From an uncultured Bacteriovoracaceae bacterium (GTDB lineage: Bacteria > Bdellovibrionota > Bacteriovoracia > Bacteriovoracales > Bacteriovoracaceae), in the NCBI GenBank assembly GCA_964012805.1, contig CAXGUD010000004.1:32001-96000 (forward strand): a stretch of DNA of 64,000 nucleotides. Reading direction: 5' to 3'. The position numbers were made by a program, and so were the translations under genes. Positions 28,601-47,190 of this stretch are shown here, piece by piece. The notes beneath the pieces were generated by a model. It saw only the letters and a list, made by a program, of their open reading frames with translations, ran no database searches and was not told the origin of the DNA. Positions within the stretch are counted from its first letter, which is position 1, and every line of letters begins with the position of its first letter.

Positions 28601-30013
28601 GACAATGTGATTCTTACCATGAGTGGCGCTTTCTCAGACATCGATAGAGATGGAGATATTGATTTTGTTCAAGGTAACTGGTCCTACGGTGCCTATAATT
28701 TTAGACGACTTAAAGTTGAAACTAGTGTGAACAGAATTTTTTTGAATACTGGAACTAAAGGAAAAATTTTTAAAAGAAGTCATTTTAAGGATAATCTTAA
28801 GGGAGAGACTCTTAGTACCCTTTTAACTGATATAAACCAGGATGGAAAAGTTGACCTTTTTACAGGCAATGACTTTTCTATTCCGGATGGCCTCTATTTA
28901 GGAAAGGATAAAGGAAAGTTTCAAAAAATTAAAAAGTCAGATAAAATAATTCCCCTTATTTCAAAGTTCACCATGAGTTTTGATAGTGCTGATATCAATA
29001 ATGATCTTCACCTTGACCTCTTTTCAGCCGAGATGGCCTTTGTTGGAAATAAAAAGGATGATAATTATTGTGATTCTATAAAAAATAAATTTGCTAAATC
29101 AAAATGCCAAAATCATTTTTCCATAAGAAGGGTTTCAAGAAAAAGGGATATTGAAAAATGCTCTCAATACAAAGGAGAGACCAATAAAAACTGCCTTTTT
29201 AGTATGATGATTGGAATAATGACTGAATCTCAAGATACAAAAAATTGTGATAAGATACCGACCTCTTTAAAAGAGGCAAGAATTTTTTGCCAGCGCCTTT
29301 TTGATCTTAAAAAAATTCAAGACCAAACAGTAACAGACAGAAACTTTGATAAGGAAGACCTACCTCAAAAGGGGATGAGTAACCTCCTTTTAATGAACAA
29401 TGGGTTGGGGGCCTTTGTTGATCAAACGAAAAAGTTTGGCGTGATAAATAGCTTTTGGAGCTGGAATTCAAAGTTTGCCGATCTCGATAATGATGAATGG
29501 CAGGACCTTTATGTAGGAAATGGCTTTCTTTACAACGATGAAATGAGCACCAATGTCTTTTTTCATAACCAAAATGGAAAAACTTTTCTTCAAAAGGAAA
29601 AGGAATTTGGGCTAGAAGACTTTATCCACACCCATTCCTATACCTATATTGATTACGATCTCGATGGTGACTTAGATATCCTCTCAACGGGAAGCTACGC
29701 TCCCTTAAGACTTTTTAAAAACAACCTTAAAAAGGGCAACTCGATCTCTTTTTCCTTTATTGACCACAAGGGGAACCGTGATGGAATTGGAAATAGGGTC
29801 ATTATCCATTATGGGAAAGATGGTGAAAAACGGCAAATTAGGGAAGTAAAAATGGGAGGAGGGTTCCTTTCCTTTGACAGACCTTGGGCCTATTTTGGTC
29901 TTGGGACCAATAATAAGGTCAAGAAGGTTGAGGTCATTTGGTCTACAGGGGAAAATGAAATCATTAACCAAGATTTTGAAGAAGGAAGGCATTACCAAAT
30001 AGAAAGAGAATAA
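25652..30013 (+). CDS. ArsP/DUF318-type permease with Cys-rich repeat region, FG-GAP repeats and ASPIC/UnbV domain
   Basis: GAPLGVCANCVAPI, SSPSLN; long Cys-pair region; GDFNNDLWPD and DIDRDGDID repeats; GGGFLSFD...YFGLG. Likely start ATG at 25688. Confidence 0.8.
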   Translation: MLNNTSKDRQVFMGFKHKRPLFLGVLLIIFTLIFWTQSRYPQLNEKEQMSGRLKINEALSFDVVYPIHDKDPLFKKIAYSFINWCATNKNGMIFGVLFATLFLTLLQNVPKRPKTKNRFIHSLVGMLLGAPLGVCANCVAPIGQGMYKTGEKPETILATIHSSPSLNIIVLTMLFSLFPLDFAIIKVLFSVFFILVVTPILTKAFSNDIKVPEEFCPIEIVPKENWATAIKESFKGFFKNLLYILWETVPIMFLAGILGLAVVEIFDLSFLQSPKDSFPLYFLIALIGTFLPVPIAFDLVFSFVLLKSGLGIGPALTFNFCLGIFSIYPFFIIYQTLSKKLAFGVFVSTMVVGILAGYTVSLKHLYTERRDLAILNKNIKELEKNAQKKGSLKGDQFYGLVLKTCSLYDGQTQKDECIENNIFNEAKAKMNYFYCLVGKVRTQDKKNQCLKRLLPHFILAGKFEPGFCYSNEPKEKKSCLKKLTIYREVSLKKDPSFCKKLKKEKLIKECQSIMVDHLLSKGGDIELCLQKEDVRKCLDNNQRIQDLSIKGNFGFKRCLLYKSKEGQDLCIDELFFFSAYPRVSLGCERVKDNKLKMRCLKVKEFSEVAKKGGPFSFCEENFKKKHILDFCETTLLRNLFIEGGDPVKKCKRFKKPSKCLKAVSVHLYERKGIESKEDLCSLVPDAKIKSYCQEEIAYRENFTFEMLNNCSSNEAKGFVPERQCELNAINNFKKNKIKEEVCSFIKYPKERKNCFKNTMFMHAALGNLEKCSLLKGDDNKECHKVYKDFKIKMGLRGGLSTLFVDTHLKKLEKKEKRSSFKGEKLKKAKSLKLSPFYKSKNLTIQSFPYFERSKGNAFSTLFQKIEGPEIGLSYSYGFSILENFEPFKYGKGISSGDFNNDLWPDIAVATETGVQLYQNLGNGRFQRVPFNPKTKGIPFLTTLVDINNDGWKDLYISSYGGLNHFYLNQKGIFEEEGLDLSDPDNVILTMSGAFSDIDRDGDIDFVQGNWSYGAYNFRRLKVETSVNRIFLNTGTKGKIFKRSHFKDNLKGETLSTLLTDINQDGKVDLFTGNDFSIPDGLYLGKDKGKFQKIKKSDKIIPLISKFTMSFDSADINNDLHLDLFSAEMAFVGNKKDDNYCDSIKNKFAKSKCQNHFSIRRVSRKRDIEKCSQYKGETNKNCLFSMMIGIMTESQDTKNCDKIPTSLKEARIFCQRLFDLKKIQDQTVTDRNFDKEDLPQKGMSNLLLMNNGLGAFVDQTKKFGVINSFWSWNSKFADLDNDEWQDLYVGNGFLYNDEMSTNVFFHNQNGKTFLQKEKEFGLEDFIHTHSYTYIDYDLDGDLDILSTGSYAPLRLFKNNLKKGNSISFSFIDHKGNRDGIGNRVIIHYGKDGEKRQIREVKMGGGFLSFDRPWAYFGLGTNNKVKKVEVIWSTGENEIINQDFEEGRHYQIERE

Positions 30014-31663: not shown

Positions 31664-32302
31664 TTGAATATGCTTAATTTAAGAGTCGTGGCGCTTTCCC
31701 TTGTCGTTGTCTTTATTGGTCTTTTCACCTTTAGGGCCTTAAAAGATGAGCCTAGTAGAAAAATCGCTAGTAGTGATATAGGCCGGGAACAGGCAAGAGA
31801 TATAAGGCCTGAAAAAAAGAAGGCCATTGTTCAAGTTGTAAAAGAAGGGGAGTTGATTCCTGACTATAAGGGAAATGAAATGCTTCTTCAGGATAAAACC
31901 TTAAGTGAAAAGACCTTGGACCTTTCAAAAAAGGCCACAGGTAAATATGAGAAATACCCTATTTACCAAGGAAGAATAGTCGTTGAAGTTCATGGAGGGT
32001 CTGTTCTTGTTCCGGAAAACGTACCTAAAAAGTTCGTTCTTTCTTCAGAGGGAGAACATTCTGAACTTGTCCCAAAAGTCTTTAAGTTTTTTAGTAACCT
32101 TGGCTTTAATCAAGATAATAAAATGAAGGTCGTTCGAGGAGACAGCTTTCTTGCCCTCCGAGGCGATGAAGCGCTTAAGGTTGAGGCCTTCACAGTTAGT
32201 TATAATTGGAATGGTACCGCTAAAAAAGAGACCTGGCTTATGAGGACGATTAACGGTCGCATGTATAAAAAACTAAGAGAACCTCTGATTGCCTCCAACT
32301 AA
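31664..32302 (+). CDS. Hypothetical membrane-anchored protein
   Basis: N-terminal TM helix followed by RKIAS. Confidence 0.7.
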   Translation: MNMLNLRVVALSLVVVFIGLFTFRALKDEPSRKIASSDIGREQARDIRPEKKKAIVQVVKEGELIPDYKGNEMLLQDKTLSEKTLDLSKKATGKYEKYPIYQGRIVVEVHGGSVLVPENVPKKFVLSSEGEHSELVPKVFKFFSNLGFNQDNKMKVVRGDSFLALRGDEALKVEAFTVSYNWNGTAKKETWLMRTINGRMYKKLREPLIASN

Positions 32303-32336
32303 AAAACTAAATTTAGTTAACAAATAATGTTTCTTT

Positions 32337-32362
32337 AAAGGCCCCTTCTGGAGCCTTTTTGT
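32337..32362 (+). terminator. Intrinsic terminator candidate
   Basis: aaaggc...gccttt stem followed by a T run. Confidence 0.5.
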
Positions 32363-32632
32363 TAGGACTTTGTCAGGGATGCGTACAATAATTGTTTGCA
32401 CCCATAGAAATTTTATTGAAATTTAAATAAATCTTAGAGACTTTTAAAAGGACCAAAAAATAAAAATTGATAAAAAAAAGAAATGATTACACCGCCTTAC
32501 TCTGCACCTTCTATTTCCCAAGTGACAATTAATAAAATCAAACTAAGAAAAGTCTAACCCTCTTATAATGGAATGTAGAAAACTTAACAAAAGAAAATAT
32601 TTAATTTTTGTCAATTTCATATTGGGGTCATT

Positions 32633-35600
32633 ATGAAAAGCTTTTGGAAAAAAATTTACCTTTGGTTAGCAGTTATAGCACTTGCCCTCTCTGGCAGCGT
32701 CTACTCTGGTGGTGGTGGTGAAACTGCACAAGAGAAAGCAGACAGGGAGCAAAGGGAACGGGAACAAAAGCAAGAGAAGAGTAAGAAAGCGGGTAAATTT
32801 GAGGATCTGGCCCCTTTAACTTATACAGATGATAAGCAAGAACCCATTTCTCCTAAGGCCCACGGGCGGCTCACAGGTAAATTTTCTATCAGTAAGAAAA
32901 GTGGGTCGGCCGAATACAATATACCCATCACAGTCGCAAAAGGCTTTAAGGGTCTAAGCCCCGGCCTCTCGCTTCATTACCAGTCGGATGGGCAAAATGG
33001 AGTTTATGGCGTTGGATGGAGCTTGGGGGGGATACCATCACTGTCACGCTGTGGTACTAACGCAACAGTCGATGGTGTCGAAACTTATAATAGAGAGGCC
33101 AAGACCAAAGTAGTTGAGAAAGGGAGAAAATATTATATTAAAAACAAGAAAGGTCTTAAGTTTGACTTCAAGGCAGGTGTTAATAAGGGTATGGAATTAA
33201 GACCTTATGATCAGCTTTGCTTTAATGGTGTCAGGCTTAAGCTTAAATCAGGGGATCACGGAAAGAAGGGGGCCGAATATAGATCCATTCATGACCGCTG
33301 GGTTAAGGCCAAAATCACTAGCGCTAACTATGGAAAGTGGATGGTCAATTGCCTTAGCGCCAATCATGAATATTGTATAATTAAAGTTTACGATTCAACG
33401 GGGAAAGTGACGGCTTTTTCCAATTATTCTCACCATGATAAAAGAACCTTTTTTCCTGAGTACACAGAGGATAAGAAAGGAAACAGATTAGAGTATCAAT
33501 GGACAAATGAATACGATAAAGAAACCCTTCTAGCTTCTGTTAATTACGTTTCTAATCCAAAGACAGGCCGTGAGGCCAGCCGAAGAGTTCACTTCTATTA
33601 TGATGACCGCCCCGACAAAAAGAAATCCTATTCAGGTGGTTATGAGTTTAAAAGTTATAAGCGTCTTAAAACAATTGAGGCCCATCACCGAAGTGGGACG
33701 AGTGATTGGCTTGTGACTAATAGATGGCACCTCAAATATAAAAAAAGTAAGACGACAAGAAGAAGCCTTCTTACCTCGGTTCAGCTTTGTGATGGAATGA
33801 CTAACGGGAAATGTCTTCCAGCAACTGAGTTTGATTACTCCGAAGGGGTCAACCCGCTAAAGGCCTTTAGTCAAAACGATAAAGAATACCATTTAGATAA
33901 AGCTTCACCAGAAATCAAATTTGAATCACTGAGTTCGAAGGTCGTGGGAGATGTCAATGGAGACGGCCTTGCTGACCTTGTTTGGGTTGAAAGAGATAAG
34001 GGTAGTCGGAGCGAATGTGGTCCGTTTGAAAAAAATAAGGCCAATGATGGCGTCGATATGGCCTGTAGTAGTTTAAATCAATTCTCTAACGGCCAAAGAA
34101 AATTCGGCCCTAAAAAATGCGTTTGCATGAAAAACGATAGTGAGGCCCCCTCTAGCCTGATTCTTCCTGGGGACCATAACAATGATGGAAAGATGGACCT
34201 TATTTATTTCAGTGCTGTTTCAAAACATTTCACTAACCATAGAGTTATGGTTGTTAGAGGAGGAGTGAATGGATTTGAAGAACCTAGCTTTATTGAAAAT
34301 GAGGAAAGGAGTGAAAGTGTTCATCTAAACAACAAAACGTCATGGGGTATGTTAGGCGATTTTGTCTATAGAGGGGACGTACACAGCAAACAGAGCGTAA
34401 AAGATCTAGGCAAAGAGCAATGGGGCACTAACTACCCTCGAATGTTGGGTGATTTTAACGGTGACGGTATTAAAGACATGTTGGGTTTTGCCCATAATAA
34501 TGTCGTTGTTCACTTGGGAGAGCTTAAAGGGAACAATAAAGATAAGGCACGACTTGGCTATGGTTCAAATTGGTTAAGCCAAATGACAAAAGGTAAAGGT
34601 GGATGGAACTCAGATAAACATCCTCGGATGACGGGTGATGTGACAGGAGACGGTCTAGCAGACATTATTGGGTTCGCTAGTAAAAATGTTTCAGTCGCCG
34701 TTAACACAGGACAAGACTTTTTAGATGGCAGAAATTGGCATAGTGGAATGGGGTCTAGTGATGGATGGAAACTTCACCGCCATAAAAGGATCATGAGTGA
34801 CGTTAATGGTGATGGGCTGATGGACATTATCGCCTTTGGTGAACAGAAAACTATGGTCTATGTTAGTACTGGGTCGTCTTTTAAGTGGTTTTGGGATTCA
34901 AAAGATTTCGCTGCCAAAGAATGGGATGAAGGAAATGAGCCAAGGTTTGCTCAAGACCTAAATGGCGATGGTATGGCAGACCTCATTGGTTTTAGTAATG
35001 ATGGACATATTGTTGTTCGATACGCTACCGGAACGGGTTTTGGTCCTTTGCATTCGGTTAGTTCTAGCGGGATTATGACGGGTAAAAACAATTGGACAGG
35101 GGAGAATAACCCTAGAATGTTTGCGGATGTTAACGGAGATGGACTCCCTGATCTTATTGGATACGCAAATAATTGGGCCAATGTTGTTATTAACCAAAAT
35201 GCCGATGCGGAGAGAGGGATTCCCGCTGATAAGATAGTGAAAGTAACAGATGGTTATGGAGAGCCTCTAGACATAGAGTATGCCACAATCATTCATGGAG
35301 AAAAAGGACTTAGAAAGGCAACAGGTCAACTTGGTGGAAAGGACGTCCCTCATTACCAATCGACAAAAACTTATAAGTACCCTCAAAGTGGCAACGTGGG
35401 GAGTGAACCGATCGTTAAAAAGACCACGCTCTCTAATTCTGCCGGAACGGATGTCGAAACTGAATACTTCTATCAAAACATGAGTAATAACGTTAATGGG
35501 CTCGGTTCAGAAGGGTTTGAGATTTTTGTCTCAAAAAATGTTGAAACAGGCGCCCATGTTGAGGAGAAATTCCTCCAACCTTTTCCAAAATCAAGAAAGC

Positions 35601-38600
35601 CTAAGTGGAGGTATGTGAGAGACGCCGATGGCAATGTATCGGCTTCGGAACAATATACTCACACCAATGCTTCCCAAGATAATGATTATTCTAGTGGCTC
35701 AAATGACTCTTGGATTACGGATAACCTCCATGAGATAAGGCAGGCCGAACATATAAGTTATAATGGCTGGGAAGGAAGTATAGCTGAAACCAACAGAACC
35801 AAATCGTATTATGGCAAATCAGGACTTAATTATAAAATTGAAGTCATACCAACAGAAATTGGTGGTGATAAGGGTTATGTTAAATGCAACCAATTTCTCG
35901 TAGACGAGGACAGATGGCTTATTTACCTTCCGACAGAAGAAAGAACCAATAAGGCCGGAGAGGGTTGTTACTTTGGTAATGAGTTAGGTGATTCCATTAG
36001 CGCTAAAAGACTTACCTACAATAGCTATGGAGAGGTGACAAGTGAAGAGGTCCTCCTTCCTAATAGTCAAAAGAACACTACACAATATTCCTGGGATAGA
36101 GATGGCGGCCTTCTAAAAATGATAGAGCCTAATGGTGCTAGAACAACCTATGAGCTCGATAATGGTAAATACGGCCACATGTTTAACACAAAAACGTGTA
36201 ACGAATATAACCATTGTGAACTTAGGACTTACCACCACACAGGCCAGGTGGCGACTAAGATCTCCACAACTGGGACCATAAGTAAGGTGGTCGTAGACAG
36301 CTTTGGTAGAACAACTGAAATGTGGGGAGCGCACAGAGATCCGAATGTCCCTATGGAAGACGAGTCCGACCTCTATAAGTTGCGGGCAATTGCCTACAAA
36401 AAGCCTTTAAATAAAAAAGATGGGGTCTTATTGGTCAAAAACTGGATCAGGAGTTCGTGGGATACGCTCAAAGTTAATGCAGTCAGAGGAGGAAAAGGTT
36501 CAAACCTCTTTGAATTTGAGTACATTGACGTTGTCGGAAACAAAATTAAAACCGAAAAAAGTGGGCGGAAAATTGGAGAAACAAAAACGTGGACCGTGAA
36601 GTATAATTCCGCGGGGCAAGTGATAGAAAAATTCGACCCTCATTCGATTGACGGTAAAGCGGATGTTAATCAGGTGAAGTTTGAATTCTATCCTGGCTCA
36701 CCAAGGATTAAAAGGAGTTGGAACCCGAGGACAAACGTAGACGTTACTTACACTTATGATGATTATGGTTTAACGACGATTGAAAGTTACCCAAGTCCAA
36801 GTAGTGATGGCGGGGGCCGCCGTACGGTGACAAAAGAGAAAACCGTTAACGGTAAACTCCTTCGAAAATATACAGATGGGGATGAGTCCACGGCGATGGT
36901 TTACGAATACGATCATGCCAATGCCTTAATAAAGAAAACGGACCCGAAAGGTGGCGTCACAACGATTACGAGAAACCAAGTAGGTCAGGTGACTAAAACC
37001 TGTAAACCAGACGCAGGCTGCACCGAAGCTGAGTATTGGAAAAATTCCGGTAAGGTGAAGCTGACCCGAGACGCTAACGGTGATGAAACGAGGATGTGGT
37101 ACGATAAGTTAGGAAGGGTTACAAAAGTCACTAATAATCTAGGAACCACAGAAAATAAATACGACCAAGGTGGTGGTTTAAAAACAGGGAAGTTAACGAA
37201 AGTCCTCTATCCTGATGGGGCCATTAGGACTTATGACTATAACCGTGATGGAGACGTGACGACCAACGTTTTTGTCCTCCCGGAAAATAAGGCGATAGCA
37301 GGGGTTAGGGTTTTCACTTCAACGGTTGAAGCGGATGGAACTCAAGTTCTTCCAACGGGTGACAAGATAAGCTATGGCTTTACAAGAGGCCAGCAAGATA
37401 GTGTGTACCTTAATGGCAACCTCGTTTATAAAGTCAAAACTTTTGATCATACAGGAAAAGCTGGACACGTTGAGTTTGGAAACGGTCTCCAAAAATTTAA
37501 TGAGTTTGATAGCCTCGGGAGGCTTAAGAGGCACAGGACTTATAGTAAGGATTGGAGGGTCGTTCATGGTGAGGCAATAACTTATCATGAGTCAAATAGT
37601 AAAATTACCAAAGTTGAAAGACTCGATATGACAGATGTAAGGGAATTTACTTACGATCAACAAGGTCGAATGTCTTCTTCCGTCTATAGGGGTAAAAACC
37701 AAAATTATGGTTACGATAAAAACTCCAACATGATTAGCATGGGGAATGATACTTATATATTAGATACTGTGGGGAACCGTACGTGGGGGGCAAAAGTTGG
37801 TGGGAAGGACATTTTTTATAGGTATGATAACGCTGGAAATGTCATTTCTAAAAGAAAAGGTGGTAAGACCACAACATTTGAGTACACGAATGGGACTTTG
37901 ACAAAAATCAAAGGGCCTAATGGCGACACAATCCTAGATGGCCGAACAAGAATTGATCCTGATGGCACTAAAACAACGATGGTTGAAGGGATTAAGTTTG
38001 TTGAAAGAAACGGCAAGTTGACCCATAGTTTTGATGTGACGGCCTTTGGAAAAAGAATTATGGCCGTGACAAGAAATGGGGCGCCTAATTTGGCCGCCAA
38101 TTCTATCCGCCACAATAGCTTCAAACTTCAAGCGGGGATGTTTGACCCCACGACCTTAACAGGCGCTTACGGATTTTTGAAAAATAAAATTGGTGAGCTT
38201 CTTACAAGAGACAATATAGTTAACGAACTTTTAATTGGAACGAGCTTTGTCTTTTCTATAGGACTGATGCTTGCCATGCTTATAAACATCTTTAGAAGGC
38301 GCGCACAGGGGAAAGTCAAATGGTGGCATTACCCCATGATCGTCCTTTTCTTTACGGTCACGACGACCCTTCCGGTCTCCGCCATCACCCTCGATCCAGG
38401 GTCAAACGGGAAGGCCCAACTCGAAGTGGGTGAAACCTATTTCCATAAAGGCTATATAGGTGGTACCCAGGCAACGTCCGATGGAACTGGAAAAATGAAA
38501 GGGCGTGTGTCTTACGATATCTTCGGAAAACTTGCCTACAAACAAGACGGGGCGAAAGACAACTTCGCCGCCAAAGGTTTTGGTAAAGAATTAGCTCAAG

Positions 38601-39727
38601 ATCAAGATGGTATCGTCTTTCACGGAAAGAGGCTCTTTGATCAAGACATAAACCGCTTTATGAACGTCGACCCCGAGGCCCAGTACCCGTCATCTTATAG
38701 ATACGCAACTGACCCGGCCTCAAACTACGACCCAACTGGTGGATTCGTGTTTACGATAGGTCTCATTATCGGTCTTGTCGTCGCCGGTCTTGCAACAGGG
38801 TTTGCGATGGCAGCGAGTATCTCCGGTACGGCCAAGTTCTGGGAGTGGGATGCCGCCACTTGGGGATTCTTTGTCTTAGGTTGTGTTATAGGTGCGGCCC
38901 TTGCCGTCGCTACAGGGGGAGCCGGTAATGCAGCCGTCGCTTCCTGGGCAGCAGCGAGTGGTACAACTTCAGCCGCACTCGCCGGGACGTGGACAGCTTT
39001 TGCGATAACCTCCGCTGTCGGCTTCGCCATAGGTGTCGGTGGTGCCATGGTAACCGGTGCCATTGTTCAAGGTGGTCAGATAGCGACGGGGCGACGAACA
39101 TCCTTCGATTGGGCAGAGTGGGGGAACTATGTTCTCAATAATGGTGTTATCGGTGGTGCTATAAGTATCGGTGCCGGTGGTCTTTTTAAACTAGGGGGCC
39201 AGGGATTTCAAGCGCTCGCTAATAATACTGCCGCCTCTACCAGTAAATGGGGGAAAGGGGTCAATTGGATAGCGACGAAGTTTGCAGGTGGTGGAGCCGA
39301 CGGTCTGGTCGACGCCATAGATGCGCCGGCCACAGGAAGTTGGGGCGGTCATATGAAGAGTGTGGCATCAAACATCTCTAAGCAGGCCTGGGAGAATATG
39401 GATACGACGATACTTACGGGGGCGGTAAAATTTGGGGGATCCGCGATGGTCTGGGCAGGGTTTAAGGATTGTGAAAGCGGCGCAGCGTGTGTCGCGTTGT
39501 CTACAGCCGGAGCGGTATTAGGCAGTATGAAGGTAGGGACTACTTCATGGAAGTACGAAGGTTCGGCACAGTACAAGCTTACCACGGGAACCGGTAATCT
39601 CACCGCGGATACGCTAGCCCTGGTAGGTGAGAAGCTTACGATTATGGAAACGACCGAGTTTGAGTCCTGGAATAAGACTGGGAGCACTTACTGCAACGAT
39701 CACGCCGCAGATGGGGTGTGTCAGTAA
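32633..39727 (+). CDS. Secreted SpvB/FG-GAP/RHS-YD repeat protein (Tc toxin B-C-like fusion) with a Gly/Ala-rich hydrophobic C-terminal domain
   Basis: Signal peptide; SpvB-like GSAEYNIPI...PGLSLHYQS...GVGWSL; GDVNGDGLAD repeats; YD repeats; RHS core end PASNYDPTG (38729-38740) followed by a tail of about 328 aa. Confidence 0.9.
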   Translation: MKSFWKKIYLWLAVIALALSGSVYSGGGGETAQEKADREQREREQKQEKSKKAGKFEDLAPLTYTDDKQEPISPKAHGRLTGKFSISKKSGSAEYNIPITVAKGFKGLSPGLSLHYQSDGQNGVYGVGWSLGGIPSLSRCGTNATVDGVETYNREAKTKVVEKGRKYYIKNKKGLKFDFKAGVNKGMELRPYDQLCFNGVRLKLKSGDHGKKGAEYRSIHDRWVKAKITSANYGKWMVNCLSANHEYCIIKVYDSTGKVTAFSNYSHHDKRTFFPEYTEDKKGNRLEYQWTNEYDKETLLASVNYVSNPKTGREASRRVHFYYDDRPDKKKSYSGGYEFKSYKRLKTIEAHHRSGTSDWLVTNRWHLKYKKSKTTRRSLLTSVQLCDGMTNGKCLPATEFDYSEGVNPLKAFSQNDKEYHLDKASPEIKFESLSSKVVGDVNGDGLADLVWVERDKGSRSECGPFEKNKANDGVDMACSSLNQFSNGQRKFGPKKCVCMKNDSEAPSSLILPGDHNNDGKMDLIYFSAVSKHFTNHRVMVVRGGVNGFEEPSFIENEERSESVHLNNKTSWGMLGDFVYRGDVHSKQSVKDLGKEQWGTNYPRMLGDFNGDGIKDMLGFAHNNVVVHLGELKGNNKDKARLGYGSNWLSQMTKGKGGWNSDKHPRMTGDVTGDGLADIIGFASKNVSVAVNTGQDFLDGRNWHSGMGSSDGWKLHRHKRIMSDVNGDGLMDIIAFGEQKTMVYVSTGSSFKWFWDSKDFAAKEWDEGNEPRFAQDLNGDGMADLIGFSNDGHIVVRYATGTGFGPLHSVSSSGIMTGKNNWTGENNPRMFADVNGDGLPDLIGYANNWANVVINQNADAERGIPADKIVKVTDGYGEPLDIEYATIIHGEKGLRKATGQLGGKDVPHYQSTKTYKYPQSGNVGSEPIVKKTTLSNSAGTDVETEYFYQNMSNNVNGLGSEGFEIFVSKNVETGAHVEEKFLQPFPKSRKPKWRYVRDADGNVSASEQYTHTNASQDNDYSSGSNDSWITDNLHEIRQAEHISYNGWEGSIAETNRTKSYYGKSGLNYKIEVIPTEIGGDKGYVKCNQFLVDEDRWLIYLPTEERTNKAGEGCYFGNELGDSISAKRLTYNSYGEVTSEEVLLPNSQKNTTQYSWDRDGGLLKMIEPNGARTTYELDNGKYGHMFNTKTCNEYNHCELRTYHHTGQVATKISTTGTISKVVVDSFGRTTEMWGAHRDPNVPMEDESDLYKLRAIAYKKPLNKKDGVLLVKNWIRSSWDTLKVNAVRGGKGSNLFEFEYIDVVGNKIKTEKSGRKIGETKTWTVKYNSAGQVIEKFDPHSIDGKADVNQVKFEFYPGSPRIKRSWNPRTNVDVTYTYDDYGLTTIESYPSPSSDGGGRRTVTKEKTVNGKLLRKYTDGDESTAMVYEYDHANALIKKTDPKGGVTTITRNQVGQVTKTCKPDAGCTEAEYWKNSGKVKLTRDANGDETRMWYDKLGRVTKVTNNLGTTENKYDQGGGLKTGKLTKVLYPDGAIRTYDYNRDGDVTTNVFVLPENKAIAGVRVFTSTVEADGTQVLPTGDKISYGFTRGQQDSVYLNGNLVYKVKTFDHTGKAGHVEFGNGLQKFNEFDSLGRLKRHRTYSKDWRVVHGEAITYHESNSKITKVERLDMTDVREFTYDQQGRMSSSVYRGKNQNYGYDKNSNMISMGNDTYILDTVGNRTWGAKVGGKDIFYRYDNAGNVISKRKGGKTTTFEYTNGTLTKIKGPNGDTILDGRTRIDPDGTKTTMVEGIKFVERNGKLTHSFDVTAFGKRIMAVTRNGAPNLAANSIRHNSFKLQAGMFDPTTLTGAYGFLKNKIGELLTRDNIVNELLIGTSFVFSIGLMLAMLINIFRRRAQGKVKWWHYPMIVLFFTVTTTLPVSAITLDPGSNGKAQLEVGETYFHKGYIGGTQATSDGTGKMKGRVSYDIFGKLAYKQDGAKDNFAAKGFGKELAQDQDGIVFHGKRLFDQDINRFMNVDPEAQYPSSYRYATDPASNYDPTGGFVFTIGLIIGLVVAGLATGFAMAASISGTAKFWEWDAATWGFFVLGCVIGAALAVATGGAGNAAVASWAAASGTTSAALAGTWTAFAITSAVGFAIGVGGAMVTGAIVQGGQIATGRRTSFDWAEWGNYVLNNGVIGGAISIGAGGLFKLGGQGFQALANNTAASTSKWGKGVNWIATKFAGGGADGLVDAIDAPATGSWGGHMKSVASNISKQAWENMDTTILTGAVKFGGSAMVWAGFKDCESGAACVALSTAGAVLGSMKVGTTSWKYEGSAQYKLTTGTGNLTADTLALVGEKLTIMETTEFESWNKTGSTYCNDHAADGVCQ

Positions 39728-39764
39728 GCGAAAAGGAACCGATCTAGGTCACATCAAAGCTAAT

Positions 39765-39799
39765 GGTGTAACTTAACAACTATAAACCTAAGTTACACC
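39765..39799. repeat. Perfect 11-bp inverted repeat GGTGTAACTTA-N13-TAAGTTACACC
   Basis: Read directly. The RT stop codon (39788-39790) overlaps the right arm. Confidence 0.9.
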
Positions 39800-41017
39800 G
39801 ATTCGACTAAAAACATACAAATCCCTGGAGTGAGCCTCCAGGGCTTTTTTGTTTCTGCATCTTTCATCGTTTGTGACTAAGCAACATGCATGAACGTGGG
39901 GTTTCTTTAGTCTTTGCCTTTGCCCTTGCCCTTGAGTCCTGCTTGGTCCGCCGCCAACTTTTTTGCCCCCGTGCTCTGCCTTTTGTCCTTTTCCTCTTAA
40001 AATGTCGTAAGGGCCAAAGTCCATTTCTGGAACTCCTCCCTTAACCCAGCTCACCCAACTCTTAAGATAATTGCCAGCGGACTTTTGCTCACCTCGCTCA
40101 TAAAGCCGGATCAATTTATCTTGGCATCTTTTAAGGGTGTCTGGGGCGGGTTCTAAGCGTTTGTGTTTCCTCTTTCCTTCCTTGACTTCATTGACTTTGA
40201 TTTCCTTAACTTCCTTAACTTCAGGACGGAGGATATAACCCAAAAACTTAAACCCATTATCTTTTATCCTCCCGATATAGGTTTTATCGGGGTGCTTTTC
40301 TACCTTTAATTTGTTTAGGACCTGATTGACGGTTTTCACCACCCGCCTTAGCTTATGCCTGGAATCAGTCATCACCACCCAATCATCCATAAACCGCGTG
40401 TAATAAACCGCGAGCTTTTCCTGCATCCGATCCATCACTTCATCTAGTGTTTTTAAATAAAGTGCTGCCATTAAAGGGGAGAGGGGGCAGCCTAGGGAGA
40501 TCCCCCGCTCGATGTCTTTGTACGTCCCTCCCCACTCAACGGTCCTTTTTAAGTACTGCCAGACGATCCGCCTTAAGTAGGGTTCACGGACGAGTTCGCA
40601 AAACTGGTTATAAAGGATTGTGTGGTCAATGGAAGAGTAGTAGCTTTTGACATCACTTTTCATGACGTATTTATAATCCCTCATCTTTTTTAAGCATTCC
40701 CTAATGGCAAACTTCGCTCCCCCGTGCCCTTTAAGGTGGGTGCAGCTTTTTGAGATTTGGGGTTTTAGCTTTTTTTCTAATTTCAACGTGATGGCTTTTA
40801 GGACAAGGGAGTCTGACGAGGTCCAAAGAGACGTCTGTTTGCCTTTAATTTCAATTATTCTAACGGGAGAGAGTTGATAGGTCCCGTTTTTTATTTGGGA
40901 GGCAATTTGAGGGAGCCTTTTTAAACGGTGCCTTCGAAGCTCCCAGATGTCTGAATTTGGTGAGTGGTTTTTTCTTTGGTTTATAAGCCAGCTATAGGCC
41001 TTTACGAGAACCTTCAT
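39788..41017 (-). CDS. Stand-alone reverse transcriptase, group II-like/unclassified
   Basis: KSDVKSYYSSIDH, RGISLGCPLSPL, YTRFMDDWVV, HPDKT and GFKFLGY motifs. No HNH domain; low-complexity C-terminal extension. Confidence 0.92.
   Translation of the reverse strand: MKVLVKAYSWLINQRKNHSPNSDIWELRRHRLKRLPQIASQIKNGTYQLSPVRIIEIKGKQTSLWTSSDSLVLKAITLKLEKKLKPQISKSCTHLKGHGGAKFAIRECLKKMRDYKYVMKSDVKSYYSSIDHTILYNQFCELVREPYLRRIVWQYLKRTVEWGGTYKDIERGISLGCPLSPLMAALYLKTLDEVMDRMQEKLAVYYTRFMDDWVVMTDSRHKLRRVVKTVNQVLNKLKVEKHPDKTYIGRIKDNGFKFLGYILRPEVKEVKEIKVNEVKEGKRKHKRLEPAPDTLKRCQDKLIRLYERGEQKSAGNYLKSWVSWVKGGVPEMDFGPYDILRGKGQKAEHGGKKVGGGPSRTQGQGQRQRLKKPHVHACCLVTNDERCRNKKALEAHSRDLYVFSRIGVT
39823..39850 (+). terminator. 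Rho-independent terminator for the RHS transcript, lying inside the 3' end of the RT ORF
   Basis: CCCTGGAG-tgagc-CTCCAGGG followed by cTTTTTT. Confidence 0.75.
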
Positions 41018-41265
41018 AGGAGAGGCGGCTTAGCACACTCCTTGAAGAACATTAAAAATTCATAATTTTATAGATTTAAAACCCAATCGGAAACTCTAAA
41101 CCAAGAGTGAGGGAGTTACTATTGTAAGAGTTATAAGTAAAAGGACTATCATCGTATGGAAGGTCATTCATAATTTTTACCTTTTTAAATAGACCCAAAA
41201 AGTATCAATAAAAAGAAAACTTTCTTTAATGAATGTTTAAAGTAGGGGATAGTGAATGAGAAAAG

Positions 41266-41346
41266 TAGGTTATAAGAATTTTAAAAAGACGAGGTGCTTT
41301 TAGGTTCACTTGGCCTTGAATTGTTATTAAGTCCTCTTATAACCTA
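41266..41346. repeat. 12-bp inverted repeat TAGGTTATAAGA-N57-TCTTATAACCTA upstream of the RT
   Basis: Read directly; extends with a G-T pair and A4/T4. Confidence 0.8.
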
Positions 41347-41396
41347 TTTTTTATTTTTAAAATGGTATTAATTAAATTGTTTAATGTGGTCTTTTT

Positions 41397-41768
41397 TTAA
41401 AGCTCTTTACAGCTTTGATCGAGCGCTTGCCCTTCTTCTGACTGGTAAAAATTAATGATTTTTGAAGGACTGATATCTTCAAAGAGGTCTTCGATTTTCA
41501 TCGTGTAGACCTTTTTTTCAACAAGGCCGTTAAAGAAACACGCGCAGTAAAGCTCACCGCCAACATTTCCTTTTCTTCTTATACAGCTATTCATAAAGCC
41601 AAGGGCGAAACCCTCTTGATATTCTTTTTCAAAACTAGCTATTTCTGCCTTAAAATAATTTTTTAGGACCTTTTGAGGGCCACTCAGGGTTAAAGCATAA
41701 GCACAGGAAACGCCTAAAAGTGTAAAGATAGAAAAAAGAATAAGGGCCATCTTTCTTGTCTTTTTCAT
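41397..41768 (-). CDS. Hypothetical secreted protein
   Basis: Signal-like N-terminus; FMNSC...YCAC Cys pattern. Confidence 0.7.
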   Translation of the reverse strand: MKKTRKMALILFSIFTLLGVSCAYALTLSGPQKVLKNYFKAEIASFEKEYQEGFALGFMNSCIRRKGNVGGELYCACFFNGLVEKKVYTMKIEDLFEDISPSKIINFYQSEEGQALDQSCKEL

Positions 41769-41811
41769 AAGTCATATGTCCTTTTGTTTTGGTTCCTTGC
41801 CTTATTAACAG

Positions 41812-41826
41812 GCAAGCTTGATGCCA
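41812..41826 (-). promoter_or_regulatory. Sigma-54 (-24/-12) promoter candidate
   Basis: Minus strand TGGCAT-CAAGC-TTGC against consensus TGGCAC-N5-TTGC, about 45 nt upstream of the 41768 start. Confidence 0.65.
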
Positions 41827-42036
41827 AATAAACCACGCTATTTTAGGAGGTTAGGGGCTTCACGCCGTCAAGGTTTTGGACGGGTATCAAAAAAGTTTTC
41901 AGAAATAAAAAAAGAACCTCTTAAAAAAAATTATTTATAAAGATTCGCTATTTATAAAGGAGGTCTATTTTGAGAGCGTTTTAAACATTTTCCCAAGGAA
42001 GACCGACAAGTTCTTGACCTTTTACGTTGGGGAAAT

Positions 42037-44523
42037 ATGAAGTTTTTGGTCTTCTTTTTTTGTATTTCATGGGCCTTTATTGCCAGGCCGTCCTCTTTAG
42101 TTTTGGAGGCAGGCAAGGAGTCTTATGAATTAGGTTCTTACTTAGACCTATTGGAAGACCCAACCACCAAATTAACCCTTGATGATGTTAAGGGCCCTTT
42201 GTGGAAAGATAAATTTAAAAGAAATAAGGTGAGGATTCCTAATTTTGGCTATCTGGATTCAGCTTATTGGATTCGCTTTGATGTTAAGGTGCCCGATAAA
42301 AGTTGGGTCTTAAAAGTCGCCCCTAATTATCACGATAACCTCTTTTTTTACTTTTTAAAGGATGGAAAATACCAAGTCATAAAAATGGGGGATAGAAACC
42401 CTGGTCAGAAAAAATATATTCATAATGAAGATCATATTTTAAATTTAGACCCTTCGTGGGGAAAGACAATTTATATTAGGGTTTTTAGTTTAGCTGGAGT
42501 AGGTGAGTTAGACCTTAAAATTATGACCTTAAGAGAGTACACCCAAAAAAGAACGGAGTTAAATTATTTTTACGGAATGTTTTTAGGGGCGATTTTAGCG
42601 GTGGCCCTTTATAACCTCTTTTTATTTTTTAGGCTTCAAAGTCTAAATTATCTTTTATACGTTTTTTACGTCCTAGGTATTTTTATCCTTATTTCAATAC
42701 TCCAAGGTTTTGGGAGGCATTACTTTTTTTCTCATAATATCTGGATGGTAAATGAAGGCCTTAATTTTTTAATTGGTTTTTTAAATATTATTTTGGGCAT
42801 TTTTACGATCCGCTACTTAAAATTAAAAAAATGGAGTAAGTTTTTTTATTATTTGATGATCTTTGAAATCTTTTTAGGTTTTTGTATTATTTTTTCAGTT
42901 TTCACTCTTCCTATTATCCTTTCGGCTAAAATAATGACTTCAATTAATACCGTAACTCCTTTAATGGCCTATGCTTCAAGTATTTATGTCATGAAAAAAG
43001 GTTATAGGCCTGCGAGGTATTATTTTTATGCATTTTCCTTTTCCTTTTTAGGCATGTTTACTTACGCTTTATACAATCTTGGGGTCCTTCCAGGCATTTT
43101 TTTTACAAGAAACTCTGTCGCCATAGGAAATATATTTGAAATCCTCCTCCTCTCCATGGGGTTGGCCGACAGGTTTAATTACAGCTTAGAGAAACGAATT
43201 AAAAAGGAAAAAGAATTAAGCTTGGATATTGAAATGCAGAGCTTTCAGCTTGAGGAAGAAAATAGAATTGCGGGAATCATGTATGAGAAGCTTCAGACCT
43301 TAAACTTAAAATTAGAAGACAGAGTTAAAGAAGCTACTGAGGATTTAAGAAGCGCCCTGGATAAAACTGAGGGGATGCTTTCAAATATTAATAAGGCCAT
43401 CTTTTCCGTTAACCCAAAAGGCGTTGTCTTGGCCCCCGTTTCAAGTTACACAAACACCCTTTTTAAAAAAGATATCGTGGGAACCAATGGCCTAAACCTC
43501 CTCTTTTTTCATTTCCAAGAGGGGAGTGCTCTTAAAAAAGATTTGATTGAGTCCTTCAGCGGTATTTTTGGCAATAGAAAAGAAGAGTTTGAAAGTTTAA
43601 GCACTGGGCTCCCCTCTCAAGTGATCCAGCCGGACTCAGAAAAGCCTAAGGGGCGCATACTAGACATTCAATACGTCCCCCTTTTTAGTAAAGACTCAAA
43701 AATTGAAAAGCTCATGTTTATTGTAGAAGATGTGACGGAAATCATGCAGGAACATGATCTCAATAGGGAAGTCCGCTCAAATTATCACGCTTTAAGGGAA
43801 GTTTTAACTTTTGATGATAAAGATATTTTGGGAGAATCTCTTTCTCAGTTCTTGGAAAAAACAACGTCTTTCCTAATATCCTTTTTAGCGCCTGATGGTG
43901 AAGAGCTTAAAAAGAGGGCCCTTTGTGAAATGATTTTAAGTTTCGTAAATGAAGTCAAAGAAAGCGGTATTTTTAAATTAGTAGAAGTTAAGTTAGTTAT
44001 TCTAGACATTCAAACCGAGATAAACAGAGAAAAAGAGGAAGAGGAGAGTCATTTTTTAATTTTAATGATTGAAAAATTATCGGGTCTTTTTTTGGTCTTG
44101 ATCAAGTATTTAGACGGTCTAAACAAGCTAAAAAAAGTTGGCGTTGGTAGTGGGGTTAGGTTTGAATTATCTTCTGGCTTTCATGAATCTATCGTTGAAA
44201 AAAAGGAAGACTTGGGAAGAATGATGACAAACCTTCTTGAATACGTCTTTTTGGTAAGAACCATTGATGACCTGGATGAAGAGAAGATAGAAAATGCTCC
44301 TAAGAAGGCCCGTCTCTATTCCCAATTTGACGATATTATTTTAAAGATTATGTATCGGACGAGGCTTATTTCCTTCCTCTTAAATATTGTTGGAAATAGC
44401 GATGAGGCCAAAAACTACCTAGAGTTTTCAGACCTTTTAAAGCAAATGCCAAGTAAGGACAAGCTGACTCAAGCCGCTTTGATGAACCATCTAATACGAC
44501 CTTATAGATTTCTTTTAAGTTAA
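42037..44523 (+). CDS. 7TM-DISM (DISMED2) receptor with PAS-like domain and unknown C-terminal domain
   Basis: LEDPT..LTLDDV, PNFGY.DSAYW, YNLFLF, GYRPARYY, LLSMGLADR; PAS-end motif MFIVEDVT; no kinase boxes. Confidence 0.85.
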   Translation: MKFLVFFFCISWAFIARPSSLVLEAGKESYELGSYLDLLEDPTTKLTLDDVKGPLWKDKFKRNKVRIPNFGYLDSAYWIRFDVKVPDKSWVLKVAPNYHDNLFFYFLKDGKYQVIKMGDRNPGQKKYIHNEDHILNLDPSWGKTIYIRVFSLAGVGELDLKIMTLREYTQKRTELNYFYGMFLGAILAVALYNLFLFFRLQSLNYLLYVFYVLGIFILISILQGFGRHYFFSHNIWMVNEGLNFLIGFLNIILGIFTIRYLKLKKWSKFFYYLMIFEIFLGFCIIFSVFTLPIILSAKIMTSINTVTPLMAYASSIYVMKKGYRPARYYFYAFSFSFLGMFTYALYNLGVLPGIFFTRNSVAIGNIFEILLLSMGLADRFNYSLEKRIKKEKELSLDIEMQSFQLEEENRIAGIMYEKLQTLNLKLEDRVKEATEDLRSALDKTEGMLSNINKAIFSVNPKGVVLAPVSSYTNTLFKKDIVGTNGLNLLFFHFQEGSALKKDLIESFSGIFGNRKEEFESLSTGLPSQVIQPDSEKPKGRILDIQYVPLFSKDSKIEKLMFIVEDVTEIMQEHDLNREVRSNYHALREVLTFDDKDILGESLSQFLEKTTSFLISFLAPDGEELKKRALCEMILSFVNEVKESGIFKLVEVKLVILDIQTEINREKEEEESHFLILMIEKLSGLFLVLIKYLDGLNKLKKVGVGSGVRFELSSGFHESIVEKKEDLGRMMTNLLEYVFLVRTIDDLDEEKIENAPKKARLYSQFDDIILKIMYRTRLISFLLNIVGNSDEAKNYLEFSDLLKQMPSKDKLTQAALMNHLIRPYRFLLS

Positions 44524-44706: not shown

Positions 44707-47190
44707 ATGATAATGAAACTGATTCTTCTTTTATTTCTTATACTTCTCACTTCTTGTGGGAATGTTAAAAACCGGCCTAAAGCCGTTAAGGGTGTCCTTG
44801 ACTTAGGTGGGTGGGACTTTAAAGTGGATGGGCCCGTCAAGCTTTCTGGAGAATGGAAATTTCACTGGCAAGAGTTAAAGGAATTAAATCTTAAAATAGC
44901 CCAAAGTGAGGGTGATTTTGTTCAAGTTCCCGGGTCCTGGACGAAAAAAGAAAGGCCTCAAATAAAGCGCTTTGGTTATGGAACTTATATTTTACAGGTG
45001 AAAGGAGTACGCTCGAAAGATGCTCTTGCCTTTAAGGCCCCTTTGTTTTTTTCGGGGTATAAAATGTTTGTCCTTCCTTCAAATATGGAGGGGAAGGCCT
45101 TAAAAGTTTTTGAAATGGGTCGGGTTGGAAAAACCAAAGAGGAGAGCACTCCAGAACTTAAAGTAAACGTTGAGACCATTAAAGCGACAGGAAAGTTTTT
45201 CATTTTCTTTCACGTCAGTAATTTTCATTACCGCCATGGATCTTTCGTTGATCCACCTACCCTCGGATTAGAAAAAGAAATGAAGAGGGATTTCACATTC
45301 TTGCAATGGTGGGACTTTTTTGTGGCGGGAATCCTCTTCATTATCAGCTGTTATCATCTTGTTCTTTACTCCATAAGAAAAGAAGACAAGGCCTCTTTAT
45401 ATTTTGGACTTTTTTCATTGATTGTTCTTATGAGGTCCTTAAGTATTGGGACATGGGGAAGCTGGATCGTAGAAAAACCAAGCGTTTTTAGTTTTTACCT
45501 TTTTACTTATTTGGAATATTTAAGTTTAGCATTAGGGGTCCCTCTCTTTTTGAGTTATATAAACCATCTTTTTAAAGATCAGTTTTCGATTCTAAAAAAA
45601 GCGTCCCTTTGGTTTTTTATCCCTTTTTGGATTTTATTTACTTTGACAACCCCAAGCTTTTATACCCAAAAAATATTTTTAAATCTTGTTTTATTAGGCC
45701 TTTTTGTTTTTTCTCTTTGGTTATTAGTCGAGATGGTGAGGCAATACCTAAAAAATACCCCTTATGCTAAAGAACTTATAATGAGTCTTATTGTCCTTAT
45801 TTTTGGTGCTTTGTATGATTCTTTAATAACTCAAAATCTATTGCCACCTCCCTTTATTTCACCTTTTACTTTTATAGGCTTTATCTTTTTTCAAAGTTAT
45901 ATTCTTGCCCTTAAATCCGCTTATTCCTACAAGGAATCAGAGCAGCTAGGGGATCTTTTAGAGGATGCCAGGATTGGCCTGGAAAGAACCGTTGATAAAA
46001 AAACAAGGGAACTCAAGGCAAGCCTCCATGAAACTAAAGGAATGCTTTCGAGTATCAATAAGGGTATCTTTAGCGTCGATAAAAGAGGAATTGTTTTAGA
46101 CCCTGTCTCTCTTTATTCAAAAATATTATTTAAAAAAGACATCGTGGGAGAAAACGGGCTTAACCTCCTTTATTTCCATTTTAAAGAGGGGAGTAAAAGT
46201 AAAAATCAGTTGCTCCAATCCTTTAAGGAAATTTTTGGTAAAAGCGAAAGCACATTTTTAAATCTAAGAAATGGATTCCCCTCTCGAGTTATTCAACCAG
46301 ATAAAGACAGGTTGAAGGGAAGGATTTTAGATATCACAACAATCCCTCTTCTTAACGCCGATTCAAAAGTTGAAAAAATAATGTTTATTGTAGAAGACGT
46401 CACGGAATCCACAGAGGAATACAATCAGTATAAGGAAATGGGTCGCGAGTACAAGGTTCTAATAGAAGTTTTACCTCTTGAAAGAAAAGATAAAATTGTT
46501 TCTGGTCTTTCCAGTTTTATGAACAACACGGTTTCCTCTTTAGGAAAATTAATGGAACCAGGAGCGGAAGACCTTTCCAAAAAAGACATCAATACCATTA
46601 TTTTTAATCTTATAAAGAAGTTTAAATCAACTGATGCCTCAAGGCTAAAGGAATTAGAAAAGGCCCTGACAAAAATTCAGGAAGAAACGACTATTCCTAA
46701 AGATAATGAAATGGGGAAAATTTTGGTTTGGGCAGTTGAAAAACTTTCAGAAATTTTTCTGGTTTTAACAAGGTATATAGAGTCCTTTAACTTCATCCAT
46801 AAAAATGGTATGGGCCCTAGCGTAATTTACTCATTTCCAAAAGGGTTTGATAGAAAACTTGTTGAGAAAAGAAAAGACCTCGATACCCTCATGTCCAACT
46901 TGCTTGAATATGTCTTTTTGGTAAGGGATATAAAAGACTTAAATGAAGAGAATATTTCAAATGCTCCTAAAAAAGCGCGTCTTTATAATGAGTTTGATGA
47001 AACAATCTCAAAGATTATGTTCCGTTCAAGGCTTATTGCGTTCCTCTTAAAAGTTGCCGGCAAAAATGAAGACTTTAAAAATTATATGAACCTTTCGGAG
47101 CTTTTAGAGCAGATGCCTTCCAAGGAAAAATTAAATGAAGCCGCTCTCGTCAACCACCTGATGGTGCCTTATAAAAAAATAAGAGGTTAA
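44707..47190 (+). CDS. 7TM-DISM receptor with PAS-like domain and unknown C-terminal domain (paralog)
   Basis: Lipobox LTSC; LSGEWKFHW, VPGSW, GYGTY, SNFHYRHG; 7TM; same C-terminal domain as 42037..44523. Confidence 0.85.
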   Translation: MIMKLILLLFLILLTSCGNVKNRPKAVKGVLDLGGWDFKVDGPVKLSGEWKFHWQELKELNLKIAQSEGDFVQVPGSWTKKERPQIKRFGYGTYILQVKGVRSKDALAFKAPLFFSGYKMFVLPSNMEGKALKVFEMGRVGKTKEESTPELKVNVETIKATGKFFIFFHVSNFHYRHGSFVDPPTLGLEKEMKRDFTFLQWWDFFVAGILFIISCYHLVLYSIRKEDKASLYFGLFSLIVLMRSLSIGTWGSWIVEKPSVFSFYLFTYLEYLSLALGVPLFLSYINHLFKDQFSILKKASLWFFIPFWILFTLTTPSFYTQKIFLNLVLLGLFVFSLWLLVEMVRQYLKNTPYAKELIMSLIVLIFGALYDSLITQNLLPPPFISPFTFIGFIFFQSYILALKSAYSYKESEQLGDLLEDARIGLERTVDKKTRELKASLHETKGMLSSINKGIFSVDKRGIVLDPVSLYSKILFKKDIVGENGLNLLYFHFKEGSKSKNQLLQSFKEIFGKSESTFLNLRNGFPSRVIQPDKDRLKGRILDITTIPLLNADSKVEKIMFIVEDVTESTEEYNQYKEMGREYKVLIEVLPLERKDKIVSGLSSFMNNTVSSLGKLMEPGAEDLSKKDINTIIFNLIKKFKSTDASRLKELEKALTKIQEETTIPKDNEMGKILVWAVEKLSEIFLVLTRYIESFNFIHKNGMGPSVIYSFPKGFDRKLVEKRKDLDTLMSNLLEYVFLVRDIKDLNEENISNAPKKARLYNEFDETISKIMFRSRLIAFLLKVAGKNEDFKNYMNLSELLEQMPSKEKLNEAALVNHLMVPYKKIRG

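Follow-up and report, generated by a model that had tools for sequence, protein, structure and literature searches.

Reverse transcriptases of the UG4 family carry a hairpin element beside a variable zone and may diversify neighbouring surface and toxin genes

The RT and RHS genes of the locus

The locus described here lies on contig CAXGUD010000004.1 of assembly GCA_964012805.1, in a stretch of 64,000 nt that we call the window and whose positions are used as coordinates. A gene for a reverse transcriptase (RT) of 409 amino acids (39788-41017, reverse strand), containing the motifs FMDD and GISLGCPLSP, converges on an RHS gene (32633-39727, forward strand) that encodes a secreted protein of 2364 amino acids, the putative target. 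The ends of the two open reading frames (ORFs) are separated by 60 bp, and the coordinates given for this arrangement in the first-pass annotation of the DNA are confirmed. Its remark that both genes are richer in GC than their flanks holds as well: the GC content over 33-41 kb is 41-51%, versus 33-35% in the adjoining kilobases and 35% in the whole genome.

Conservation of the RT ends at about residue 328 (position 40034), and homologs align only over residues 1-330. This core (40034-41017, reverse strand) contains the FMDD active site and a thumb ending in WxxWVxxG, and RVT_1 is the only Pfam match of the protein. Residues 329-409 (39788-40033, reverse strand) form an unconserved read-through tail that is largely disordered in the structural model, with a predicted local distance difference test score (pLDDT) below 50 for residues 343-409. 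The tail crosses a terminator-like hairpin (39823-39843) that has T-rich tails on both strands and is situated between the RT core and the RHS stop codon; as five such matches were observed compared with 2.1 in shuffled sequences, it is a consensus match only. Because the conserved RT ends near residue 328 and the unconserved tail runs over this hairpin, the 60 bp gap is incidental. The meaningful spacing between the two genes is the 378 nt from the RHS stop codon to a two-hairpin element of the RT-sense strand that occupies the final RT codons (40106-40076). The intergenic stretch 39700-40020 taken as a whole has no significant structure (z scores of -1.7 and -1.4).

In the RHS protein Pfam recognizes an SpvB-like N-terminus (SpvB/TcaC-like), FG-GAP propellers and YD/RHS repeats; an RHS core at residues 1961-2036 scores just below the cut-off, and the C-terminal region is hydrophobic and rich in Gly and Ala. 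Close relatives of the protein carry the name Bdellovibrionota. Residues 1875-1935, just before the RHS core, comprise hydrophobic helices and a signal-peptide-like stretch, which is unusual in RHS proteins and is common to the paralogs on C23 of the same genome and at locus L004.

The window RT has 1063 homologs at E values of up to 0.001, and a profile search gave at least 150 clusters (50% identity) with E < 1e-80. The RT of locus L078 is 39% identical to the window RT over residues 4-334 (E = 2e-66) and shares a 90% cluster with SBS31940.1, which is a UG4 row in the part of FileS1 of PMC9226505 that was compared (31 of its 108 UG4 rows); six other accessions have no match among the UG4 rows listed there. 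Because of this connection the window RT is assigned to UG4, a named family of unknown function. The size of its core, about 328 residues with RVT_1 only, fits the short UG4 RTs of 278-347 residues without an additional known domain described in the covered part of PMC2602772. In a tree of 91 rows built by a quick method, with neither L078 nor any retron or further UG reference among them, a single branch (Shimodaira-Hasegawa-like approximate likelihood-ratio test 100) unites 25 family members with 15 profile hits and excludes 26 SQ-type and 20 group II-type RTs. The RT, for which the first-pass annotation had sought a place in a reference tree, thus falls in a family that has its own branch and already bears a name.

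Hairpins in the RT gene and the zone downstream of them

The element inside the RT gene consists of hairpin 1 (40096-40106, reverse strand), with a near-invariant 4 bp stem GCUU/GAGC and a 3 nt loop within RT codons 304-308, and hairpin 2 (40076-40093, reverse strand), which covaries in the family and is shorter and imperfect in the window allele. Codon usage was examined over the last 25 codons of 94 RTs, dereplicated at 85% and ranging in GC content at third codon positions from 35 to 83%. One leucine is encoded by CTT in 100% of them, against an expected 15% (z = 23), and near it Glu is encoded by GAG in 99%, Arg by CGG in 95%, Gly by GGT in 94% and Arg by CGC in 88%, while the median z score for codon fixation is 1.6. 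Codon fixation at the end of the RT gene far exceeds what the protein requires.

The exact core motif is present in 83 of the 94 RTs. Among 74 sequences of standard spacing, the two hairpins pair in 92% of cells and six pairs change on both sides; the covariation score was reached by none of 500 shuffles, which leave relatedness in, and by no slid control, and RNAalifold predicts the same two hairpins. It is the RT-sense strand that folds, since G-U pairs dominate over A-C. The stem of hairpin 1 is kept with eight different loops in 147 loci (it was missed in ten) and the hairpin is found in all 11 plasmid loci examined, fimbrial members included. The motif occurs twice in the source genome, once per RT copy. 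Searching 301 cyanobacterial genomes with the motif alone gave 20 hits in 15 genomes, and none with a reversed control; RT protein similarity is found at 18 of the 20, an intact full ORF at two and a convergent ORF within 900 nt at 19, with five hits appearing to duplicate loci already in the set. Strand skew around the motif, with a G-rich bin just after it, falls largely on Trp codons and is not used as evidence. The sequence comparisons give good support to a cis RNA element. Should the RT turn out to be passive, this covarying structure within the ORF still stands as a solid, new trait of the family.

At about 100-900 nt past the hairpins, related loci have diverged or exchanged sequence, with 91-100% identity retained on both sides, whichever way the gene is oriented. 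One Pirellulaceae genome contains three dispersed, convergent units with RTs that are 91-96% identical and promoters, signal peptides and anchors that are nearly identical; the passenger region beside the anchor is saturated with changes at all codon positions, which fade toward the 5' end. The convergent loci L040 and L066 follow the same pattern. In the convergent Salmonella pair L304/L321 the identity is 95-100% in the RT, 51-59% at +300 to +900 and 91-100% at +1100 to +1800, and in the co-directional Escherichia albertii pair L305/L317 it is 96-100% in the RT and 43-53% at +200 to +500, returning to 100% at +1000. Much closer pairs differ in the same place. Of the 12 substitutions in 5.7 kb between L315 and L316, none lies outside +250 to +447 and 11 are confined to 99 nt; three of the nine changed codons are synonymous, and one indel lies outside the zone. 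Over 8.9 kb, six near-clonal E. coli plasmids vary by substitution at only three sites, located between +353 and +426 and including a triallelic one, with two single-base indels elsewhere, and L012 and L213 differ at five sites, all at +223 to +397. A downstream variable zone is well supported by these alignments, and it is independent of the orientation of the target gene.

When carried over to the window, the predicted zone (+80 to +900 from hairpin 1) would occupy 39205-40025, with no strand assigned, and would span the RT tail, the intergenic DNA and the last ~170 RHS codons. Silent partial copies of PEP-CTERM targets are present at L051 (11730-12230) and L047 (283-524); their differences from the expressed copies are clustered in short patches and are not restricted to A. 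The expressed copies are frameshifted in these patches, and some of the frameshifts may be long-read errors.

Origin of the variation

The hairpins and the variable zone would both be accounted for if the RT bound the hairpins of its own transcript and reverse-transcribed the RNA past them in an error-prone manner, with copying usually stopping near the hairpins and the cDNA recombining back into the same locus. Repeated rounds would produce a gradient of variation that fades with distance, and rare read-through or ectopic integration would leave 5'-truncated RT remnants with cargo; the target in the window would be the RHS C-terminus. The RT's own transcript is favoured over the target mRNA as a template because the fimbrial members are co-directional, and with such a template no protected copy would limit sequence space. 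We judge it fairly probable that the RT engages its own transcript, makes error-containing copies of the part past the hairpins and returns them to the locus, and equally so that a UG4 RT serves as a cis-acting generator of diversity that needs no separate template repeat; the RT is the likely cause of the variation. With slightly less confidence, we lean toward UG4 being a second, independent class of bacterial diversity-generating retroelement (DGR), in which a single gene would hold both the enzyme and the RNA signal and 0.1-0.9 kb downstream would be rewritten iteratively with the RT's own transcript as the template, a class that would cover fimbrial adhesins, invasin-like and PEP-CTERM proteins, tail fibres, RHS proteins and toxins of extracellular contractile injection systems (eCIS) in many phyla. 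UG4 may also capture or shuffle whole cargo domains.

A number of observations weigh against this proposal. Pooled over 14 near-identical pairs, 25 substitutions were counted in 10,931 nt of the zone and 23 in 62,909 nt outside it, a 6.3-fold difference, but in seven of the pairs the zone is free of substitutions. Not all pairs are independent: one plasmid set contributed two, and some may represent duplicate assemblies of a single sample. The limits of the zone were drawn after the diverged pairs had been seen. An adenine-only spectrum was not found, and the pooled variable zones point both ways; eight of the 12 differences between L315 and L316 involve A. In many pairs of RTs that are 91-98% identical, homology breaks off within ~30 nt of the end of the RT core, unrelated cargo follows, and homology returns at a sigma-70-family gene or in the conserved portion of the target. 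Error-prone copying alone is therefore insufficient as an explanation, and whichever model applies, the swapping of cargo probably requires recombination or template switching. The RT remnant and toxin tip of L292 and L296 (-350 to +740 from the RT core end) are almost identical between flanks of 85-98% identity, a comparison that shows a recent, plain allelic exchange of a cassette. Many loci have broken RTs, and two RHS paralogs on C2 of the source genome have neither RT nor hairpin. The RHS C-terminus of the window is identical in three full-length alleles, one fragment and one DNA allele, and receptor-binding domains are under diversifying selection regardless.

Several of these observations agree with ordinary recombination that swaps polymorphic cassettes combined with diversifying selection, the RT being a homology arm or passenger and the hairpins serving RT expression or some unrelated binding. 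It is in line with the unrelated cargo that separates RTs of 91-98% identity from a conserved far flank, with the cassette recently shared by L292 and L296, with the frequency of RT pseudogenes and with the lack of a clear base-specific spectrum, and the patch of 11 changes between L315 and L316 could be one imported fragment. It leaves unexplained, however, why an RT with intact catalytic residues is found repeatedly, across many phyla, next to variable genes of unrelated kinds, why the orientation places the variable end toward the RT, why the gradient fades in both orientations and how a site with three alleles arose in near-clonal E. coli plasmids. Furthermore, the Pirellulaceae genome holds no other copy of the target, and hence no donor, beyond its three units. 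We regard this explanation as a serious competitor, although an unlikely one.

The remnants and duplicates of the RT gene bear on another explanation, namely a selfish retroelement comparable to a long interspersed nuclear element (LINE), in which the RT would recognize the hairpins in order to spread copies of its transcript, along with downstream cargo, to new sites, and variation would arise incidentally. In agreement with this, three dispersed units are present in the one Pirellulaceae genome, six of the seven extra RT pieces in six loci (the intron-split L079 and L081 excluded) reach the 3' end, most of the 20 cyanobacterial loci picked by the motif hold 5'-truncated RT remnants, and at L045 a duplicated unit that adjoins an RT remnant terminates 28 bp short of a start codon. 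Simon and Zimmerly (2008) mention possible mobility of UG4, and the covered part of their paper (PMC2602772) describes near-identical UG4 copies with unrelated 3' flanks, which agrees with the breakpoints in the present loci. The copy number is nevertheless low (one to three per genome), the same-site remnants at L294 and L295 differ in length, which suggests later deletion, duplicates of the RT 5' end also occur (L017 and L043), and the fimbrial members are stable inside operons. Altogether a LINE-like element seems to us quite improbable. Of the loci excluded above, L079 (6992-8656) and L081 (5356-7020) contain a group II intron with its own RT, antisense inside the UG4 RT and displacing its 3' end. 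At L226 (780-3660) several repeats of the RT 3' end surround one gene, which resembles that of a REP-associated tyrosine transposase.

The first-pass annotation proposed that the RT and the convergent surface or toxin gene are one unit. Homologs indeed recur beside the variable end of such genes and their neighbours are non-random, but convergence is only one of two layouts. Counting the next ORF of at least 150 amino acids by mechanical ORF calling, 150 loci (97% dereplication) divide into 73 convergent, 24 co-directional, 14 without such an ORF and 39 on contigs that are too short, and 106 loci (80% dereplication) into 49, 20, ten and 27, respectively. The corresponding numbers for 34 distant, mostly DGR-type viral RTs are three, 19, one and 11. 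An upstream-orientation control is only weakly different (p = 0.014 at 97% and p = 0.19 at 80% dereplication). Among 48 hand-picked convergent ORFs, 24 belong to secreted, surface or effector families (nine PEP-CTERM, four eCIS core, three RHS/SpvB, two collar, two DUF1554 and four others), four to mobile elements and four to other families, and 16 have no match; 30 further convergent ORFs comprise six PEP-CTERM, three eCIS core, five with other exported or enzyme domains, three housekeeping and 13 without a match. In 40 plasmid records two layouts occur: the RT is convergent with an inverse autotransporter, or it is located toward the end of a chaperone-usher operon with a signal-peptide protein next on the same strand. 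Convergent partners include PEP-CTERM proteins, eCIS toxins, tail fibres, RHS proteins and inverse autotransporters, and fimbrial operons have a co-directional adhesin. It is the variable part of the target that faces the RT: the C-terminus in convergent RHS proteins, eCIS toxins and inverse autotransporters, and the N-terminus in co-directional fimbrial adhesins. The pairing of the RT with surface and toxin genes is not due to chance.

The convergent layout could point to antisense priming, in which the 3' end of the convergent RT transcript would pair with the target mRNA and prime cDNA synthesis, and template switching would capture other mRNAs tail-to-tail. The convergent bias (73 versus 24) and the lack of relationship among the convergent cargo genes are consistent with this, as is the comparison of the L051 gene with its silent copy, in which 12 of 15 differences involve A on the target-sense strand. 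The co-directional fimbrial loci, however, share both the zone and hairpin 1, so antisense priming would need two mechanisms, and the base spectrum of the saturated zones leans the opposite way; we give this explanation little credence. The same co-directional members favour the RT's own transcript as a template over the 3' end of the target mRNA, which the first-pass annotation gave as an example of what the RT may copy, and that part of its proposal is not supported. In filamentous cyanobacteria (L019, L023, L052, L079, L239 and L244), the RT and a convergent sigma-70-family gene flank cargo that is specific to each locus, resembling a cassette with one slot.

In the window itself, five alleles of the RT differ only at residues 310-351, just downstream of hairpin 1. 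RHS alleles differ at two and four residues, none beyond residue 1955, and in the DNA allele L201 the last 570 nt of the RHS gene are identical, with a single difference in 2251 nt that lies in the RT tail. Diversification without a separate template repeat, which the first-pass annotation suggested for this locus, is seen in related loci, but the window RHS C-terminus is invariant among close alleles. The GC content at four-fold sites in the last 150 RHS codons is 57%, rank 2 of 652 long ORFs (genome mean 28%, standard deviation 8%), dropping to ~37% toward the N-terminus, and it is lower in the paralogs without an RT; since the RT-linked paralog on C23 has no such peak at its end (38%), this is suggestive only. 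The RHS orthologs on C23 and at L004 have 28-42% identity in the last 100 residues, and a drop in C-terminal identity is common in RHS proteins anyway. Among the runs listed, 19 of 23 contain part of the stretch, and two RNA runs with shares of 0.05-0.06 constitute no evidence. Because the RHS C-terminus is invariant and lies behind a two-way terminator-like hairpin, the window copy may be quiescent or insulated by the terminator. The window is a genuine member of the system of RT, hairpins and variable zone, while ongoing diversification of its RHS gene is putative.

Elsewhere in the source genome, a second RT copy, frameshifted, converges on the 2913-residue RHS paralog on C23, and at L004 an RT is also convergent on a giant RHS gene. 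Among 60 related genomes, the family is present only in G003, which belongs to the same genus. One of the RHS paralogs on C2 (L003, 3973-12754, reverse strand) has the terminal Cys motif of the RT-linked C23 gene and no RT or hairpin downstream, and may have lost its RT. A small predicted exported protein without a Pfam match is encoded 5' of the window RHS gene (31664-32302, forward strand), and an ORF that by eye resembles it also precedes the paralog on C23. Further upstream, an ORF of 1453 residues (25652-30013) has an apparently permease-like membrane N-terminus, a Cys-rich region and FG-GAP-like repeats. On the other side, tandem paralogous genes (42037-44523 and 44707-47190) encode multi-membrane sensor-like proteins; similar genes lie beside RT remnants at L004, where two more remnants (441-848 and 5348-5788), with no obvious secreted target adjoining, are found within 10 kb upstream of the RHS-linked RT.

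Relation to known systems

Retron RTs are recognized by NAxxH and VTG motifs, and a DGR combines the RT-accessory protein pair bRT-Avd with a template repeat (TR) and a variable repeat (VR). The first-pass annotation saw no marks of group II intron, retron, DGR or CRISPR types, and the Rfam, motif, repeat, array and tree results are of the same tenor. An Rfam scan of 38500-42100 found no significant group II intron RNA (domains V/VI), retron RNA or other RNA (three matches, best E = 0.34). A group II intron RT is rejected on account of the absence of intron RNA and of a GIIM domain and its separate clade; a retron RT since NAxxH and VTG are absent from the alignment, retron models score far below the cut-off and there is no upstream Rfam RNA; and a CRISPR-associated RT since there is no cas1 among the flanking ORFs scanned and no array in 32000-42100. 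No NCBIfam model of the DRT defence RTs (Drt2-5 and AbiA) scores above its curated cut-off. A DGR RT is rejected as motif B has SP (GISLGCPLSP) and not SQ and the protein falls outside the SQ-type clade of 26 RTs. No TR/VR pair was found in the window or its genome, none with A-only differences in the homolog loci and none in the Pirellulaceae genome. Beside the window RT there is no co-directional small ORF with a Pfam match that could be Avd or a similar accessory gene, and 80 genome loci, judged by ORF position only, have no conserved upstream gene. The ESM Atlas returned generic RT names only. One of 41 viral-contig hits is a family member, and phage records gave no family match. A placement among group II-like (G2L) RTs, considered from the covered text of PMC8632793, PMC8934634, PMC2602772 and PMC4244168, was dropped once UG4 membership had been established.

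The covered parts of PMC2602772, PMC9226505, PMC8934634, PMC8632793 and PMC4244168 describe UG4 as being of unknown function, associated with fimbriae, plasmid-borne and not enriched in defence contexts, the last point being made in PMC9226505. The present homologs agree with the published family in size, plasmid occurrence and fimbrial neighbours, whereas the window copy has the convergent, non-fimbrial layout. A function, a cis RNA element, convergent secreted targets and downstream hypervariability are not described in the covered parts of PMC2602772 and PMC9226505, and a literature search that extended to neither subscription papers nor bioRxiv supplements found no UG4 mechanism, RNA element or convergent targets. 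The RT family is known; the system is undescribed in the literature covered. Fusions of the RT to fimbrial proteins are doubted in the covered part of Mestre et al. (2022; PMC9226505). Nine protein predictions (P0213, P0219, P0222, P0245, P0253, P0273, P0275, P0287 and P0298) have a UG4 RT in frame with other domains, a signal-peptide-like stretch being followed by fimbrial-like, InlB-repeat, fn3 or DUF11 regions.

UG4 has been listed since 2008 without a function, and the hairpin element together with the variable zone gives it a concrete, testable one, suggesting a new route to surface-protein variation in bacteria without a separate template copy. If correct, this would be the second RT-based hypermutation system of bacteria and simpler than DGRs, with one gene, no template repeat and no accessory protein, and it would be invisible to DGR finders based on TR/VR pairs. 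It would account for why the tips of adhesins and toxins are locally hypervariable in marine, soil and enteric bacteria, and it could serve as a compact means of continuously mutagenizing a chosen neutral gene in vivo.

In structure, the RT model resembles group II and G2L RTs most: its best structural match is the GsI-IIC RT, and its top NCBIfam match is TIGR04416, with 133 bits against a cut-off of 300. The UG4 RT differs from these enzymes in having no intron RNA, no GIIM domain and a clade of its own. With DGRs it shares the small size and a similar fold (TM scores of 0.78-0.79 normalized to DGR bRT), as well as diversified ligand-binding ends of surface, fibre and adhesin proteins and clustered substitutions. 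It differs from them in that no template repeat or accessory gene was found, in that changes extend beyond adenines and in that the zone is set by the distance from the RT end. The loci finally resemble polymorphic toxins of the RHS and eCIS/DUF4157 types, which swap their C-termini, in that toxin tips are exchanged after a conserved core (L292/L293 and L027/L050). Those systems have an immunity gene or orphan module at the distal junction, where UG4 loci have the RT end or the hairpin element, and adhesins that are not toxins show the same pattern.

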